Source: a virus (taxonomy: Duplodnaviria; Caudoviricetes). Taken from it: a stretch of 64,000 nucleotides of DNA. This document shows positions 45,978 to 58,094 of the stretch, in pieces; position 1 is the first letter of the stretch, and every line of letters starts with the position of its first letter. The stretch spans positions 288,001 to 352,000 of the IMG/VR virus record IMGVR_UViG_3300017716_001697, one strand, 5' to 3'. The notes beneath the pieces are model-generated. The model did no database searches and had not been told where the DNA came from. It saw only the letters and a list, made by a program, of their open reading frames with translations. The position numbers were made by a program, and so were the translations under genes.

Positions 45978-48215
45978 ATGGTTGATGCAGTTAACATTGT
46001 AGGAATTGACGGCGAGGCACTTGCTTCGGCTCTTAGATCGTCGCCGGCGTGGGCTACAGAAAGGACCCTTAACGAAATAAAGGGATTACTTGCAGGTAGT
46101 GGCAGCGCAAGTAAACAGAAGGATGTATTTAGTTTAGCCCAACGATCTGTCTTGAAAGATTTATTCAGCGAATTAGAAAAGGAATCTAAAGCAGCTAAGA
46201 CGCGAGCCGAGCGTGAGAAAAAAGTAGCAGAAGGACGCGCCGACCGTGAATTATTATTTGGCAAAGGGCTTACTACCTTAAACCAAAAAATACTATTTGT
46301 TTCCGCAGCCCTGAATAAAATGGGTGATGCTATACAGGATACATTTAAGAGTAATATCAACTCATTTGCAACATTGCAAAGCAGTGGCCTAGACCTAATG
46401 AGAGGCATGGATAATGCCTCAAACGGGTTTCAGTCATTGCAACAACTTTCGTCCCTTACTGGAATTAGATTTACTGAATTATCATCTACTATGATAAAAT
46501 ATAATTCCGCTATAAATGCGTTTGGCGTTGGTAAATTTGCTAAAACGTTAGGTAAATCAACTGATGCATTAACTAAATTTGGATTCTCTTCAAAGGAAAC
46601 CGGTGACTTATTAGGTGCATATCTTGAAATACAACGCGGCCACACAGACATGCAAAATAAGACAACCGACGAAACATCAGCAGAATTAGTGATATTTGGT
46701 AAAAGGATTAATAATTTATCTTTAGCAACAGGTATGGCAAGAGGTGCTATACTTGCTAATATGGATGCGATGAGTAAGAACACAAGTATGGCGATTTTAG
46801 CAGCCCAACAAGGCTCTAAATCAGCAGAGGCTACTACCGGATTCCTTGCCTCGCTAAAAGATCAAGATTTAGCAAACACCTTGGCAAAAATGATGACTGA
46901 TCCTGTCAAAGCATTAAACGCTTCATTTGCAGCCCTTCAGAAGGGTGGTATGGGCGACCTTGCCGCCGAGCTTGAAACATTATTGGCGGGTATGGAAGGT
47001 CTCAGCGAATCGGAAAAAGCTAAAGCCTTGGCAAATTTTGCCGCTGCCCATGATCAAGATCTTAGATCTAAATTACTTGACGCTAATTTTCAGTCCCAGG
47101 CGCCCGGAATGGAAGCAATAGGTGCGGCCAATGTTAAACTTATAACAAGCCTACAAGCAGCTGGACGCCAAATAAACAAGTTTGCAGAAGAATCAAACGA
47201 TCCTGCTGCTATTGCTCGGGCTGATTTTGCAAAGTCATGGGAAAATTTGATGTCGCAGATGCAATCCACATTTTCTTTGCCGATAAAAGCATTGGAATTG
47301 CTTACATGGGGTATCAACGGTATAGCAGAATCCATAAAATGGTTTACCGGGTTATTTAGTTCCGAAACAAAGGGGTGGATAGGTGCAATAGGTGTTGTTG
47401 TAGGCTCTCTTGCAGGCTTGGTATTAGGATTTAAAGGTGTAACCCTTGTATTGAGTCTATTTAAATCTTCCATTCCGCTATTACTTAGGGGATCTATAGG
47501 AATGATCGGTACTGCTATAGCAGCGCCATTTAGAATATTTAGTACTGGCCTCACTACAGCATCAGCAGCACTGGGGCGACTAAGTGCATCCGCCAGTGCC
47601 GCTAGTGCTGCAACAGGCGCAGCTGGAGTAGCCGGTAAATTTGGCGGCCTCGGTAAGATATTGGGATTTCTTTCCGCAGCGGCGGTGGTAGCTAATATAG
47701 GCGATGCTGCTGGCGGCGCAATGGGCGTAGGTAAAGATAAAGATGGCAATGATATAGAACTTAATAAGGCACAAGATGATGCTAATTGGGAAATGATGTC
47801 AATGCCACAGAAGATGATGTCAGGATTGCTGAGAGGTATTGAGGGTGTGGGTGGTATTATTGGTATGGATAATATTGCTAGATCCGCCGCCAATGATCGC
47901 ATTAAGGCAGAAACTGCCGGACTAAAGACTAAGAAATCTACTGAAATTTCTGTACCTAAAGATCCTGCACCATCGACTATTGAAAGTCCGTCTGCAAAAC
48001 CTGCAAAGGTTACAGAAAAATCTGCAGAAACTGCACCTGATGTATCTGATCCAAAGACGTCAACTCCTGCCGGTTTAGACACTAACGCCGGCAGCAATGA
48101 CATAAATAACTTACTAACATTCCAAAGCTCGGTTCTGCAACAAATTCTATTGAGTACACAGGATGTTGTGTCGATTAACCGAGATATTCTTAAATTTACA
48201 AGAGCTAACGCATGA
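45978..48215 (+). CDS. tape-measure-like protein
   Basis: 745 aa, Ala/Gly/Leu/Ser-rich helical composition with hydrophobic segments; adjacent to the frameshifted chaperone. Confidence 0.6.
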   Translation: MVDAVNIVGIDGEALASALRSSPAWATERTLNEIKGLLAGSGSASKQKDVFSLAQRSVLKDLFSELEKESKAAKTRAEREKKVAEGRADRELLFGKGLTTLNQKILFVSAALNKMGDAIQDTFKSNINSFATLQSSGLDLMRGMDNASNGFQSLQQLSSLTGIRFTELSSTMIKYNSAINAFGVGKFAKTLGKSTDALTKFGFSSKETGDLLGAYLEIQRGHTDMQNKTTDETSAELVIFGKRINNLSLATGMARGAILANMDAMSKNTSMAILAAQQGSKSAEATTGFLASLKDQDLANTLAKMMTDPVKALNASFAALQKGGMGDLAAELETLLAGMEGLSESEKAKALANFAAAHDQDLRSKLLDANFQSQAPGMEAIGAANVKLITSLQAAGRQINKFAEESNDPAAIARADFAKSWENLMSQMQSTFSLPIKALELLTWGINGIAESIKWFTGLFSSETKGWIGAIGVVVGSLAGLVLGFKGVTLVLSLFKSSIPLLLRGSIGMIGTAIAAPFRIFSTGLTTASAALGRLSASASAASAATGAAGVAGKFGGLGKILGFLSAAAVVANIGDAAGGAMGVGKDKDGNDIELNKAQDDANWEMMSMPQKMMSGLLRGIEGVGGIIGMDNIARSAANDRIKAETAGLKTKKSTEISVPKDPAPSTIESPSAKPAKVTEKSAETAPDVSDPKTSTPAGLDTNAGSNDINNLLTFQSSVLQQILLSTQDVVSINRDILKFTRANA

Positions 48216-49924
48216 CATGGAAAAAATTCTTCAAGCCCGTTAATTCGGTCTTACCCGCTGCTCAACGAACAGTTGACAGTACATCTGCTTATGCATCTAC
48301 GGCAAAATATAGTAATTGGTTGCCGGAGGTATATGCCGGTCCACCAGATAGATTACAGAGATATGCTGTATATGATCAGATGAACTATGATCATGAAATT
48401 AGCGCAGCATTGGACACTATTGCAGACTTTGCAACAGATCCAGACGAAGTAACAAAACTTCCACTTGTAATTGAGTACAATGACGAACCTACACCATCAG
48501 AAATTCAGATTCTAGAAAAATCTCTTAATCAGTGGGTTAGGATGAACAAGTTATCTAGACGCCTATGGCGCATGTTTAGGTCAGTATTGGTTTACGGTGA
48601 TCAATTCTTTATTCGCGACCCGGAGACGTTCGAATTATACTGGATTGATCCAGCTAAGGTAGAAAAGGTTATTGTAAACGAAAGCGAAGGTAAGAAGATT
48701 GAAAGCTACTTTGTTAAGGACATTGATCTTAACATGAAGAATCTTGTTGCTACCAATCAGTTAAACAAAGCATCTAATGCCGCTATGGGCGGCAACAGTA
48801 TTGTATTTTCACCACCAATGGCAGGAAATCTAAACTATGTATCTGGTGGCTTTGGCAGTGCAGGCAGCGCCAATTACAAAGATGGTGGTGCAACAGCAGT
48901 GGATGCCGAACATATTGTGCAATTATCGTTAACTGACGGTATGAATGCTGCATGGCCCTTTGGCCTAAGTATTTTAGAGCAAATTTACAAGGTTTACAAG
49001 CAAAAAGAACTACTAGAAGACGCTATTCTTATATATCGTGTACACCGCGCACCAGAGCGTCGTGTATTCTTTATTGACGTAGGTACAATGCCACCTAATA
49101 AGGCGTCACAATACTTAGAGCGCATCCGCTACGAAGTTCAACAGAAGCGTATTCCTAGCCGTACAGGCGGCGGAGCCAACGTTGTTGATTCTACATACAA
49201 CCCTATGTCTATATTAGAAGATTATTTCTTTGCAGTAACTTCTGAGGGTCGCGGCTCTAAAGTCGAAGTATTACCGGGTGGCGAAAACCTAGGTGATATT
49301 GATGACTTGCGTTATTTCAATAACAAGATGCTTCGTGCATTAGGTGTACCTAGTTCTTACTTACCAACAGGCCCAGAAGATGGTACGGCAGCAGTAACAG
49401 ACGGCAAAGTAGGCACGGCATTTATTCAGGAATTTAGGTTTGCTAAGGTTGTAACACGTTATCAGCAACAAATCATTGAACCACTCGATGATGAGTTTAA
49501 GTTATTCATTAAGCATCGTGGTATAACAATCGACAATAGTTTGTTCCAATTGAAATTCACACCTGCGCAATCGTTCTCTGAATATCGTCAGCTTGAATTA
49601 GACGCAGCAAGAATTAATACATTTACTGCGCTTACTGATATTTCGTTTGTATCCAAGAGATTCATTCTTAAGACATATTTAGGATGGACAGAAGAGCAAT
49701 TAGCTGAGAATGAGCGTATGTGGAAAGAAGAACGTAGTCGTCTTACTAAGACATTTGCTCCAGAGGCTAGCGGTGGTGGCAGTGCTACATCGGGACTATC
49801 TGATGTAGGTATTACCAGTTCTGGAATTGACGATATGGCACCTGATGCTGAAGAAGCAGGTGCACCAGCTGATACAGGTGCAGCACCAGTTTCTGATACA
49901 GAAGTAGATAGTTTCGGTAGTTAA
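48212..49924 (+). CDS. gp20: portal protein, T4 gp20-like
   Basis: EISAALD, LEDAILIYRVHRAPERRVFFIDVGTMP, EDYFF..GRGSKVEVLPGG. Confidence 0.92.
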   Translation: MTWKKFFKPVNSVLPAAQRTVDSTSAYASTAKYSNWLPEVYAGPPDRLQRYAVYDQMNYDHEISAALDTIADFATDPDEVTKLPLVIEYNDEPTPSEIQILEKSLNQWVRMNKLSRRLWRMFRSVLVYGDQFFIRDPETFELYWIDPAKVEKVIVNESEGKKIESYFVKDIDLNMKNLVATNQLNKASNAAMGGNSIVFSPPMAGNLNYVSGGFGSAGSANYKDGGATAVDAEHIVQLSLTDGMNAAWPFGLSILEQIYKVYKQKELLEDAILIYRVHRAPERRVFFIDVGTMPPNKASQYLERIRYEVQQKRIPSRTGGGANVVDSTYNPMSILEDYFFAVTSEGRGSKVEVLPGGENLGDIDDLRYFNNKMLRALGVPSSYLPTGPEDGTAAVTDGKVGTAFIQEFRFAKVVTRYQQQIIEPLDDEFKLFIKHRGITIDNSLFQLKFTPAQSFSEYRQLELDAARINTFTALTDISFVSKRFILKTYLGWTEEQLAENERMWKEERSRLTKTFAPEASGGGSATSGLSDVGITSSGIDDMAPDAEEAGAPADTGAAPVSDTEVDSFGS

Positions 49925-49927
49925 TAA

Positions 49928-49935
49928 GATAAATA
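49928..49935 (+). promoter_or_regulatory. putative late promoter GATAAATA
   Basis: Immediately after the portal stop, upstream of the ATT-start ORF. Confidence 0.6.
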
Positions 49936-49966: not shown

Positions 49967-50194
49967 ATTAACGCACGCGAATTACTTACAGAATTCTATG
50001 ATCCTGCTGATGATCAACTCGGTAAGGCTGAGCTCGATGATACACGCCGTCCACGATTAACTATGATTCATTTACAGAAACTTAGGAAGTCTCGCGACGT
50101 CGAAAAATACGAAACCGCCCAACATACTAATTTCTTACCAGATATGTATGGTGTATCTGCAGCACCTGCAGATAACGGAATGGGCGGTCTATAA
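49967..50194 (+). CDS. 75-aa head-module protein with ATT start (T4 gp67 position), missed by the ORF track
   Basis: (M)NARELLTEFYDPADDQLGKAELDDTRRPRLTMIHLQKLRKSRDVEKY...GGL*; AGAGG RBS 8 nt before ATT; no ATG/GTG/TTG between in-frame stop 49934 and ATT. Confidence 0.7.
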   Translation: MNARELLTEFYDPADDQLGKAELDDTRRPRLTMIHLQKLRKSRDVEKYETAQHTNFLPDMYGVSAAPADNGMGGL

Positions 50195-54989: not shown

Positions 54990-55409
54990 TTATTTCGTAT
55001 GCTGGCTTAGCATAAGTTTAATCTTCTCTGTTGCCTTAAGATTACAAAAGCTTATTCTTGCACCTTGGTGCATTGGTTTAGGCCACTCACCTAGGTCTAT
55101 CCAGCAATAGCCACAACTCTCGGCGTTAAGTATAGGTACAAATTCGTCTTCGACAATGCATACGAACGAATAATATTTGAAGTGTTTATCTCTACTTTGG
55201 TAAACATCGAACGGGTATATTTTTTCTATATCGGGCACGAATCCCATTTCCTCAGACAATTCCCTGAGTAATGCATCTTTTGGTTGTTCGCCGTGTTCGA
55301 CCATGCCACCCCAGACTGCCCAGCACATAGGGTGCGTCTTGTGAGTGGCTCTTAAGTTTAAGAGCACTCTATTTGTTTTTGTTGACACAAATAGAGTGCC
55401 TACACCCAT
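54990..55409 (-). CDS. NUDIX hydrolase
   Basis: Nudix box GGMVEHGEQPKDALLRELSEEMG; likely start MGVGTL at 55409 just after the upstream stop. Confidence 0.85.
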   Translation of the reverse strand: MGVGTLFVSTKTNRVLLNLRATHKTHPMCWAVWGGMVEHGEQPKDALLRELSEEMGFVPDIEKIYPFDVYQSRDKHFKYYSFVCIVEDEFVPILNAESCGYCWIDLGEWPKPMHQGARISFCNLKATEKIKLMLSQHTK

Positions 55410-55410
55410 T

Positions 55411-56856
55411 TTATTCGTATATTGAGATTGGGAGTCCATTAGGTACCTGAATTATGTTATCTATTCTCCAATACCCCGGCGAATATACACCGTAATATGT
55501 ATATGACCAATTTGTTCCATCGAACGTATACTGAGAACTATTTGAGTTATTTACTACATAATTTAAACCTGTTGCAGTTCGTGAATCAAAAATGACTACC
55601 CATGTGCTTCCATTAAACTCTATAATGTCATTTGGGTAGGCAACAATTGTTACGCCCCACGGACTACCGACAACGCCTGGCGGTATAGCAGGTTCTTCGC
55701 CTGCGCTGTCTGCAGATGTTAACAAATACCTTTGCCCTGGTGCTGCTAGTGGCAATCCACTACCAGGTGTTATTTCGGTAGGATCAATAATCGAATCAAT
55801 CGGCATGATAGTTGTAGGTGGCAACGTGTCGATGTCTGGTGTGAAAATAAGCACGTTTTGACGCATAGGGTCTTGTGCGATTCCGCCGATAACATCAGAA
55901 TCGCTGACATCTATGTTAGGGTTTAATTTTAGCCGAATTTTGGTGATATTAGGGTCTATCTGCCCGTATATTTGTATGAGGTTCTGCCAGCTTTGTATAG
56001 GTTGAACATTGCCTGCTTGGTTCAGCAATGTGATTTCGTCAACTGCACCAACTCTTGCTACGGATACCTTATAATTTCCTTCAGTAGTAATGAGTTGTGA
56101 CGGTATACCAGAGAAACATGTTTTAAAAATATCATAATCGCCGTCTAATGTTGCTTCTAGATTTTGCACATCTTCAACTTCATAGATGTTAGTAACAATT
56201 TCAGCAATGATTCCGCTCTTCTTAACTTTAGCAGGTGGATTGATCCAAATAGGTACTTTAAATTTCCATGTCATTACATCACGTACTGTATCACCACTTT
56301 GCGGAATTGCGCGATTAGACCATGTAAATTCTTCCATCCATACTTCAAAGATACTTGTCCAATCTAATAGATTACTATTCTGCTGTAATTGCACTGACGG
56401 ATTGAATATGGAATTAATCTGTTCCATAACCTGTAATTTGTTTGTTGTGTTTGTTGTCCAGCAATCTAATTTGAAATACATATCATACGGCACTGGCATA
56501 TAACGATCAACATCATATCTTATCCCCGGCCCGTCACCGTATGTGTTTGTATCTTTATCGAATTCTCTTTCGACAGTCGACACCTTACCTACAAACTGGG
56601 AATCTTGTCTCCTGTTTGGTGCCATGCGTATGCTATCAATGTACACACTGAACATAGGAGAAGGCATAACAGTGTTGTCACTAGCACCTTTAATTAGTTG
56701 TGCAACCATGTATGATGGGTCACCGTACAGCAATGGTATGCGAGTAATAGAATACAAACCATTGGCATCTGGGCCATTTCTAACTTTTATGTCAGAAAAA
56801 ATTCGCATAAATTGCAGCAGGTAACGCCTGTGCTGAGAATCGTAAAAAAAATCTAT
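55411..56856 (-). CDS. gp15: tail terminator / sheath stabiliser, T4 gp15-like, with ATA start
   Basis: RIPLLYGD, MPSPMFS, MPVPYD, KLQVMEQI..IFNPS motifs; frame extends 16 codons above the track ATG as (M)DFFYDSQHRRYLLQF to ATA at 56856. Confidence 0.65.
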   Translation of the reverse strand: MDFFYDSQHRRYLLQFMRIFSDIKVRNGPDANGLYSITRIPLLYGDPSYMVAQLIKGASDNTVMPSPMFSVYIDSIRMAPNRRQDSQFVGKVSTVEREFDKDTNTYGDGPGIRYDVDRYMPVPYDMYFKLDCWTTNTTNKLQVMEQINSIFNPSVQLQQNSNLLDWTSIFEVWMEEFTWSNRAIPQSGDTVRDVMTWKFKVPIWINPPAKVKKSGIIAEIVTNIYEVEDVQNLEATLDGDYDIFKTCFSGIPSQLITTEGNYKVSVARVGAVDEITLLNQAGNVQPIQSWQNLIQIYGQIDPNITKIRLKLNPNIDVSDSDVIGGIAQDPMRQNVLIFTPDIDTLPPTTIMPIDSIIDPTEITPGSGLPLAAPGQRYLLTSADSAGEEPAIPPGVVGSPWGVTIVAYPNDIIEFNGSTWVVIFDSRTATGLNYVVNNSNSSQYTFDGTNWSYTYYGVYSPGYWRIDNIIQVPNGLPISIYE

Positions 56857-56873
56857 TTTGGGTGCCTCTTTAT

Positions 56874-58094
56874 TTAATTAGGTTTTGTCTTAGCTCGTTG
56901 CTCGGCTATATTAGCTCTAATATCTTCGGCAGCAGTAACATCAATTTTTCGTTGTGCATACAGATCAACTTTCTGTTTCACTACTTGAGATACAGCTTGT
57001 TTCTCAGGTATCACTGTGCCGTTAGGTAACAATGTATCTCTGTTGTTATCAATAAATGTATCTAGTACACGGTTATAAGCAGTCCAACTTTTCAAAACAT
57101 CTACCTCTATAAGTCTGAAACAATTACCTTGTTTTTGGAATAATCTCTCTGGGTAATAATCTAATCGTAGATAATATTGCCCGTCTTGCATATTAGGCGG
57201 GAATGTTATTCCTGCACCAACTAACGGCCCACCATTTGGTGGTGCACCATCGCCGCTGTAGAAGTTACTGCCAATAACAGGGTAGTTTGTTTCAGGATCA
57301 ATGTAGATATACAAATTTGCACTCTCAAAGAATTTCGGATCAAAGAACGCATACTTTTCAGCTTCGGCTACGTTTTGATCTGTAATAGATATAATTTTAC
57401 AAAATAGATCCAAAGATGCCTTAATGTCTGGGTTACAACCTAGACCGGGTTCGCCACCATTAGTTGCAATCCCGGTAAATCCTTCAGGCATAATACCTAT
57501 GCCTTGTCCGACACCGCCTGCCGTATCGCCTGTCGCAGCTTGATCAACAATTTCTTTGAATTCTGGCGAAGCTGTCATTAATTTAGCTCTTACAAGCCAA
57601 ATATGTGGAAACCATTTCTGTCCATATCCAGCAGCCGCGTATAATGCGTCGTGAACTACGTAATACCTATTTATACCTACAGCATTATCAAAGATAGGGA
57701 CATCTCTCATACTAGGGAATTCTAAGACATCACCTGCTATTAATTTTCGTCCTATAGCATCAACCATATCGTTATAATGAAACTGTATGCGAATCATGTC
57801 TGAGCTAAGGAATATACCGAACTGGGATAAATCGTAGTTTACGTCCTGTGGGGTATGATGTCCACGCAATTCTATGACATCTGGGTTGTATTTCCTTGAT
57901 GTGTTCTCTAAGAATAGCACATCTTGTATAGATGTTAGTGATGTATCAGTGCTACCAGTCGAGTCAATTTCGGGCCCTTCATACATATGGACAAGGATGC
58001 CGTCCCCAGATATGCGGAGTGCTTCGCCGACCACTCTGTCAGTAAAATTGAAATCACTGCCTTTTTGCGGTGACCACAAACTAATTCTTGGCAT
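56874..58094 (-). CDS. neck / head-completion protein, T4 gp14-like
   Basis: LFLENTSRKY, DLSQFGIFL, GRKLIAGDVLEFP, WFPHIW motifs; next to the gp15-like gene. Confidence 0.55.
   Translation of the reverse strand: MPRISLWSPQKGSDFNFTDRVVGEALRISGDGILVHMYEGPEIDSTGSTDTSLTSIQDVLFLENTSRKYNPDVIELRGHHTPQDVNYDLSQFGIFLSSDMIRIQFHYNDMVDAIGRKLIAGDVLEFPSMRDVPIFDNAVGINRYYVVHDALYAAAGYGQKWFPHIWLVRAKLMTASPEFKEIVDQAATGDTAGGVGQGIGIMPEGFTGIATNGGEPGLGCNPDIKASLDLFCKIISITDQNVAEAEKYAFFDPKFFESANLYIYIDPETNYPVIGSNFYSGDGAPPNGGPLVGAGITFPPNMQDGQYYLRLDYYPERLFQKQGNCFRLIEVDVLKSWTAYNRVLDTFIDNNRDTLLPNGTVIPEKQAVSQVVKQKVDLYAQRKIDVTAAEDIRANIAEQRAKTKPN

Follow-up and report, generated by a model that had tools for sequence, protein, structure and literature searches.

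Background

The gene starts closest to the one described here are the IF3-proofread AUU and AUA starts of infC and pcnB in E. coli and of infC, cvfC1 and ccpN in S. aureus (PMC13009471, PMC5499595). In these genes, a conserved AUH codon (AUU, AUC or AUA) stands behind a correctly spaced Shine-Dalgarno (SD) sequence, the N-terminus is missed by gene finders, and a reduced or conditional output is expected. IF3 rejects AUH starts, and in vitro the context can raise AUA to the activity of AUG (PMC5499595). The AUH starts of S. aureus, which are helped by an extended SD duplex, give 10-30% of the output of AUG (PMC13009471). More generally, excess IF3 inhibits non-canonical starts, leaderless mRNAs and SD-less re-initiation (PMC2268962).

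In this work, we consider a phage tail gene that very likely starts at AUA behind a 12-base leader, GAGGCACCCAAA. The locus resembles the known cases in all the respects listed above, but its SD is GAGG only, and the conserved part is the spacer, CACCCAAA. Moreover, in contrast to the infC/pcnB type, the 12-mer recurs across unrelated genes and phages and undergoes block exchange with ATG leaders, and an autoregulatory logic is not evident. A conserved spacer instead of an extended SD, together with the recurrence across unrelated phages, sets it apart from the known cases. Orthologs of the genes in the window use all three of the modes antagonised by IF3, namely AUH with the leader module, a leaderless-like ATG, and an SD-less TAATG, although we infer both leaderless transcription and IF3 sensitivity here, and some orthologs have a plain SD with ATG.

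The gp15-like gene

The window, that is, the whole stretch of 64,000 nucleotides that was analysed, corresponds to bases 288001-352000 of a phage genome recovered from a freshwater metagenome; this genome is 364,576 bp long and has direct terminal repeats. The closest cultured relatives are the PA5oct-like Pseudomonas jumbo phages, with ~45% protein identity; a search for DNA-level relatives among cultured phages found none. The features discussed below are collected in Table 1 in window coordinates, and positions in the complete genome are named as such in the text.

Table 1. Features of the window around the two copies of the leader
Feature	Positions	Strand	Basis or remark
Portal gene (T4 gp20 type)	48212..49924	+	context
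T4-late-promoter-like motif GATAAATA	49928..49935	+	conserved in all small-gene orthologs
Second leader copy AGAGGCACCCAAA	49954..49966	+	exact match, then ATT
Small gene	49967..50194	+	ATT 49967-49969, 75 codons, stop 50192-50194
gp15-like tail sheath stabiliser / tail completion gene	55411..56856	-	481 codons, plus stop 55413-55411
First in-frame ATG (Met17), very probably not the start	56806..56808	-	Leu in PA5oct
T8 run, codons 2-5 (GAT TTT TTT TAC)	56844..56851	-	minus-strand reading
ATA, very likely start codon of the gp15-like gene	56854..56856	-	alignment with PA5oct ATG, Pfam profile position about 1
Leader AGAGGCACCCAAA	56857..56869	-	GAGG core 56868-56865 and 8-nt spacer CACCCAAA
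In-frame TAA closing the frame 8 codons above the ATA	56878..56880	-	minus-strand reading
Upstream virion structural protein gene, PHROG 11591	56874..58094	-	stop TAA 56876-56874

The gp15-like protein matches Pfam family PF16724 with an E-value of 4e-23 and a score of 82.2 bits, well above the curated cut-off of 25. When the protein is read from the ATA, residues 4-231 lie on profile positions 2-213 of 245, so that the N-terminus is covered. The gene stands in a virion/tail neighbourhood whose order is that of EST35_0163, EST35_0162 and EST35_0161 of PA5oct (structural protein, sheath stabiliser and NUDIX protein), and, as stated in the database record, ESI-MS/MS had detected the PA5oct proteins. 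The gene for the NUDIX/MutT-type hydrolase, at 54990-55439 on the minus strand of the window, overlaps the end of the gp15-like gene by 29 nt; the order of these two genes is identical in PA5oct.

The resemblance to T4 gp15, itself of family PF16724, comprises the profile match from the N-terminus, the FFYD..RRY motif and the structural-gene neighbours. The protein differs from T4 gp15 in the absence of an AUG start and in its length of ~480 aa, as against ~270 aa in T4, which is due to a long C-terminal extension common to the PA5oct-like jumbo phages.

The ATA start codon

On the minus strand, the region of the start reads TAA, TTA AAT AAA GAG GCA CCC AAA, ATA, GAT TTT TTT TAC. There is no ATG, GTG or TTG in frame between this TAA (56880-56878) and 56808, and the 16 codons above the ATG at 56808, which read (I/M)DFFYDSQHRRYLLQF, encode the best-conserved part of the family. 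The ortholog in PA5oct begins with ATG AAC TAT TTT TAC GAC, its ATG falling opposite the ATA. Two further metagenomes yielded contigs of 98% and about 88% identity in which the leader, the ATA and the T8 run are unchanged, and in the more distant of them the conservation begins exactly at 56868, the first G of GAGG. In the contigs compared, no sequencing error or strain polymorphism was seen at the ATA or in the T8 run, whose length does not vary, and since two independent metagenomes keep the leader, the ATA and the T8 run, an assembly error does not account for them. With no canonical in-frame start above the N-terminus, and with a conserved AUH codon that is aligned with the starts of the orthologs, the gp15-like gene very likely starts at ATA 56856-56854.

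The preliminary description of this DNA had identified the gene as gp15-like, had proposed the ATA as its start, and had noted an upstream in-frame stop without any ATG, GTG or TTG. The PF16724 match bears out the identity, and the ATG of PA5oct, the Pfam profile and the orthologs with AUH starts (see below) support the start; the minus-strand reading agrees with the description of the upstream frame.

The leader and its two copies

The 12-base leader consists of the SD core GAGG, which stands 8 nt before the ATA, and a spacer made of C and A only. The distance from GAGG to the start is identical in all copies of the module and is a working distance for an SD. The extended SD of the S. aureus type is not found: GAGG alone is constant, and the preceding base may be A, C, G or T. 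With an SD core of only 4 nt and a variable base in front of it, the leader is not accounted for by maximal ribosome-binding strength.

There are exactly two copies of the 13-mer AGAGGCACCCAAA in the window, and the 364,576-bp genome contains no others, even when up to one mismatch is included. The two copies share 15 identical bases and then diverge, within the start codon (ATT at 49967 in one case and ATA at 56856 in the other), and the flanking sequences are unrelated. Among 585 genes with canonical starts, a common 13-nt leader is found in just two pairs, both of neighbouring genes, so the identity of the two copies is not a matter of chance. The earlier view that such a 15-nt identity is unlikely to reflect chance or sequencing error is thus upheld by this comparison and by the independent contigs. 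The genome contains the word CACCCAAA three times, as against about 10 occurrences expected, and two of the three are the two leaders.

The three AUH start regions of the genome, including that of a third gene described below, fold at only -0.7 to -2.0 kcal/mol, as compared with an average of -5.6 +/- 3.3 kcal/mol for the ATG start regions (n=372). In the 16S, 23S and 5S rRNAs of E. coli, nothing complementary to CACCCAAAAU or GGCACCCAAAAU over 7 bp or more was found; the only match between spacer and rRNA, a 4-bp CCAA/UUGG near G1530, was discounted. Rfam 15 covariance models gave no match at either leader with E <= 1, and the literature contained the leader motif in unrelated eukaryotic primers only.

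Exchange of leader and start codon among orthologs

We fetched 80 gp15 orthologs from IMG/VR and compared the closer ones (62-78% identity). Twelve of these carry the module with ATT, ATC or ATA at the position of the ATA, all with intact 480-codon frames, and about 24 others have ATG, TTG or GTG at or next to this position behind unrelated leaders. When the window copy is included, a canonical start is found in 0 of 13 gp15 genes with the module, as against 24 of the 28 counted without it (Fisher 1.4e-7, kinship ignored). Every GAGG-YAYCY-AAA leader in the closer orthologs precedes AUH; the variants of the leader (GAGGTACCCAAA, GAGGCATCCAAA and GAGGCACCTAAA) contain C/T changes only, at -8, -6 and -4. 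A maximum-likelihood tree of 45 gp15 proteins contains at least 8 changes of module state, and near-identical gp15 proteins carry different start designs. In one relative, gp15 has ATG while the small gene has the module with ATC; the two genes therefore switch independently.

According to the preliminary description, orthologs with ATG behind unrelated leaders would refute its reading. Taken literally, such orthologs exist, but their ATGs sit at the position of the ATA and not at that of MRIFS (56808), and they therefore confirm both the start and the link between the leader and AUH.

Two further designs are seen among the relatives. Seven gp15 orthologs (L265, L290, L275, L289, L284, L286 and L282) have a good SD and a start codon, near position 590-620 of each locus, that is one base out of frame with an intact 480-codon reading frame without a start of its own; six of them use ATG or GTG. 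Four of the seven read ATG/GTG GAT TTT TTT ACG (T7), and slipping by -1 on the U UUU UUU would lead to MDFFYD, and two read ATG GAC TTT TTT CTA TGA (T6C), a 5-codon dead end from which a +1 slip at UUU-C would lead to the same MDFFYD. In the last, L282, the GAGGCACCCAAA leader precedes an ATC that lies in the same dead-end frame as in the T6C pair. This combination of an out-of-frame start and a T-run recurs in independent lineages and samples and, as judged from the sequences, looks like programmed slippage right after the start rather than error.

The other design is a second class of AUH leader, found in L267, L279, L305 and L303, in which AGGAGG is followed by a 6-bp hairpin with a 7-nt loop and then, after 7-8 nt, by ATC or ATT. 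The stem shows compensatory changes (CGGCAG/CTGCTG versus CGACAG/CTGTCG), and the hairpin would bring the SD close to the start codon. In the leader of T4 gene 38, likewise, a hairpin bridges the distance between SD and start; the class occurs in the relatives only and is absent from the window.

The small gene after the portal gene

The second copy of the leader precedes a small gene that follows the portal gene, and the PA5oct ortholog of this small gene is a virion structural protein by mass spectrometry. Among its orthologs, five distinct sequences combine the exact leader with ATT or ATC, and 13 loci have ATG behind unrelated leaders. The motif GATAAATA upstream of it is a putative T4-late-type promoter, as judged from its likeness to the T4 consensus TATAAATA. 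In nine small-gene orthologs (L012-L017 and L020-L022), which represent three sequences, the ATG stands exactly 5 nt after GATAAATA, of the ATAAATA type, with AGAAT or AATAT in between. If transcription starts as at T4 late promoters, the mRNAs of these loci are probably leaderless.

Other non-canonical starts in the genome

A genome-wide screen for SD plus AUH was too noisy for counting non-AUG genes, and a screen based on coding scores was cleaner. The small gene ranks first in the latter, and next after two contig-end artefacts comes a third AUH gene, located outside the window (genome 83647-84147, plus strand). It encodes 166 aa, belongs to PHROG 11279 (unassigned function) and starts as AGAGGCATTAAA-ATT; the first canonical start is 53 codons downstream of this ATT. 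In most orthologs the aligned codon is ATG, and the ATT falls on position 1 of PHROG 11279. Of 80 orthologs, 13 have ATT, ATA or CTG as their start codon, preceded by various A-rich leaders, for example GGAGAAATAAA-ATA. Since the AUH orthologs of this gene use other leaders, CACCC is favoured by, but not required for, AUH starts. In addition, the open reading frames at genome positions about 105402 and about 30817 (plus strand) have a positive coding score for 17 and 34 codons, respectively, above their first canonical start, and these are possible additional non-canonical starts.

The module in other phages and in cellular genomes

IMG/VR was scanned for GAGGCACCCAAAAT, which gave 100 unique contexts among the matches listed. 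A match was called a gene start on structural grounds, that is, when it was followed by an open reading frame of at least 60 codons, with an in-frame stop at most 20 codons upstream and no canonical start between. Among the matches listed, 18 gene starts had AUH (ATT 13, ATC 3 and ATA 2) and 9 had ATG. In contrast, the permuted spacer GAGGCCCACAAAAT gave 1 AUH and 6 ATG among the matches listed, and GAGGCACACAAAAT, in which C-5 is changed to A, gave 0 AUH and 15 ATG, again among the matches listed (motif versus both controls, Fisher p = 6e-6 on these counts).

Nine of the 18 AUH cases listed are orthologs of the two window genes and nine are unrelated. The latter are two P22-type major capsid genes, a gp19-type tail tube gene, a cyanophage-type gp15 gene, a gene for a 729-aa tail fibre on a contig with 60% GC, a class-II amidotransferase gene whose catalytic Cys follows directly after the ATT, and three others. 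In both capsid genes (L071 and L103), the leader is followed by ATT as residue 1, and residue 2 falls on position 2 of the Pfam and PHROG profiles; their cultured or annotated relatives have ATG at the aligned position, with other leaders. No literature on capsid genes starting with ATT was found. Contigs bearing the module have GC contents between 37% and 66%.

In bacterial and archaeal genomes, GAGGCACCCAAAATT was gene-start-like in 2 of 120 matches listed, and both of these have a canonical start 3-6 codons downstream; the corresponding fraction in IMG/VR was 13 of 34 among the matches listed. From these comparisons, use of the module looks phage-specific. Taken together with the exchange among orthologs, the counts make it likely that a sequence-specific leader is coupled to AUH.

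The preliminary description had gone further and had seen in the leader a shared cis-element that defines a non-AUG regulon for head and tail joining components. The cis-element stands, being tied to AUH, but the restriction to head-tail joining does not: the same 12-mer is found on capsid, tail tube, tail fibre and amidotransferase genes. As for a regulon in this genome, there are two genes and one variant, and relatives switch each gene independently.

Proposed mechanism and alternatives

The best explanation, which we consider reasonably probable, is that the initiator tRNA, checked by IF3, starts translation at a ribosome-binding region that is both open and sequence-specific and that keeps expression low or late. 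GAGG and the fixed C/A spacer of 8 nt, CACCCAAA, would place the ribosome at the AUA, where the initiator fMet-tRNA would read the near-cognate AUH, so that residue 1 would be Met. The unstructured, sequence-specific leader may hold the 30S complex long enough to pass IF3 proofreading. As seen among the orthologs, GAGGCACCCAAA plus AUH behaves as one unit that is swapped as a block for an ordinary leader with AUG. The output may be lower than that of an AUG start, or timed differently, which would suit low-copy late virion parts. Since the tail terminator and the small portal-adjacent protein are low-copy virion parts, a low or late output is plausible for them. However, the module is also found on major capsid genes, for which a high output is needed; this argues against simple attenuation and indicates that the output can also be high, in agreement with the finding that AUA can equal AUG in vitro when its context is optimised (PMC5499595).

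The CACCC spacer may be read by the ribosome platform, by a phage bS21 or IF1, or by another factor. The phage encodes bS21 (genome 118510-118665) and IF1 (genome 141891-142073, with a TTG start behind AGAGG), and no phage IF3 was found in the genome. There are also about 45 tRNA genes, including two with anticodon CAU, one with GAU, a doubtful UAU and an amber anticodon CUA, plus a tmRNA-like gene. A phage initiator tRNA dedicated to AUH was considered and rejected, as in none of the tRNAs does the anticodon stem contain three G-C pairs or the acceptor stem begin with an unpaired position. We suggest tentatively, as a proposal that may well prove wrong, that GAGGCACCCAAA-AUH is a phage-specific, sequence-defined initiation element that unrelated phages have adopted repeatedly, mostly for late virion genes, that depends on the state of the infected cell and that has a specific partner reading CACCC. 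In such a state, IF3 proofreading might be low, or the ribosomes might be altered by phage factors such as bS21 or IF1.

A related possibility is that a dedicated trans-acting factor binds to the leader, either phage bS21 or IF1 in host ribosomes or another phage protein or RNA, so that specialised ribosomes would translate these genes. This differs from the explanation preferred above only in who reads the spacer. It is consistent with the presence of bS21 and IF1 and the absence of IF3 in the genome, with the apparent phage specificity of the module, with the known contact of bS21 with the SD/anti-SD helix, and with the proposal that phage mRNAs are given preference by phage bS21 at late stages of infection (PMC9723584). 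That a single base matters, too, fits a recognition site better than general accessibility. Nevertheless, nothing ties bS21 or IF1 to the leader sequence, and the module is also present in P22-type contigs and in contigs with 37-66% GC, so that we regard a dedicated factor as unlikely.

Alternatively, the leader could simply be a good generic ribosome-binding site behind which ATG decays neutrally to ATH, with recurrence due to ancestry or sampling. Nine gene starts among the matches listed do have ATG behind the same 12-mer, AUH starts also occur with other leaders, and relatives flip their start types often. On the other hand, none of the 13 gp15 genes with the module has ATG, although ATH and ATG are one step apart, and two other C/A-only spacers, one of the same composition, have almost no AUH among the matches listed. 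Besides, the module occurs in unrelated gene families at very different GC contents, and since only 12-15 nt are common to the copies, it is not an inherited sequence. Neutral decay is therefore improbable.

It is also conceivable that initiation at the AUA is confined to ribosomes coming from termination on the upstream gene, whose TAA (56876-56874) is 17 nt before the ATA. No match to a promoter or terminator was found between the PHROG 11591 gene and the gp15-like gene on the minus strand, which makes co-transcription and coupling possible; in most gp15 orthologs with the module the upstream stop is 2-8 nt before GAGG, and several ATG orthologs overlap the upstream stop as TAATG. Against such re-initiation speaks the small gene, where a 42-nt gap separates the gene from the portal stop and the module lies about 26 nt past the transcription start expected from the promoter-like motif, and L263 and other loci carry the module behind unrelated upstream DNA. 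We consider obligatory re-initiation quite improbable. Finally, a start at ATG 56808 (MRIFS), which is the one called by gene finders restricted to ATG, GTG and TTG, is scarcely credible, since it would remove the 16 best-conserved residues and Met17 is Leu in PA5oct, and the same holds for a dead copy or a sequencing error of ATG, as AUH is kept in 12 orthologs with intact frames and independent assemblies agree.

Implications

Starts other than AUG tend to be regarded as isolated oddities with no effect beyond a lower expression. In the present case, a 12-base leader accompanies AUU, AUC or AUA in genes and phages that are unrelated. Should this be confirmed, the leader would be a portable cis-element for non-AUG initiation and could help in studying how phages steer the host ribosome. 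In practical terms, standard gene callers cut or miss the genes that carry the module, including capsid and tail genes, and a rule of the form GAGGYAYCYAAA + ATH would repair many phage annotations.
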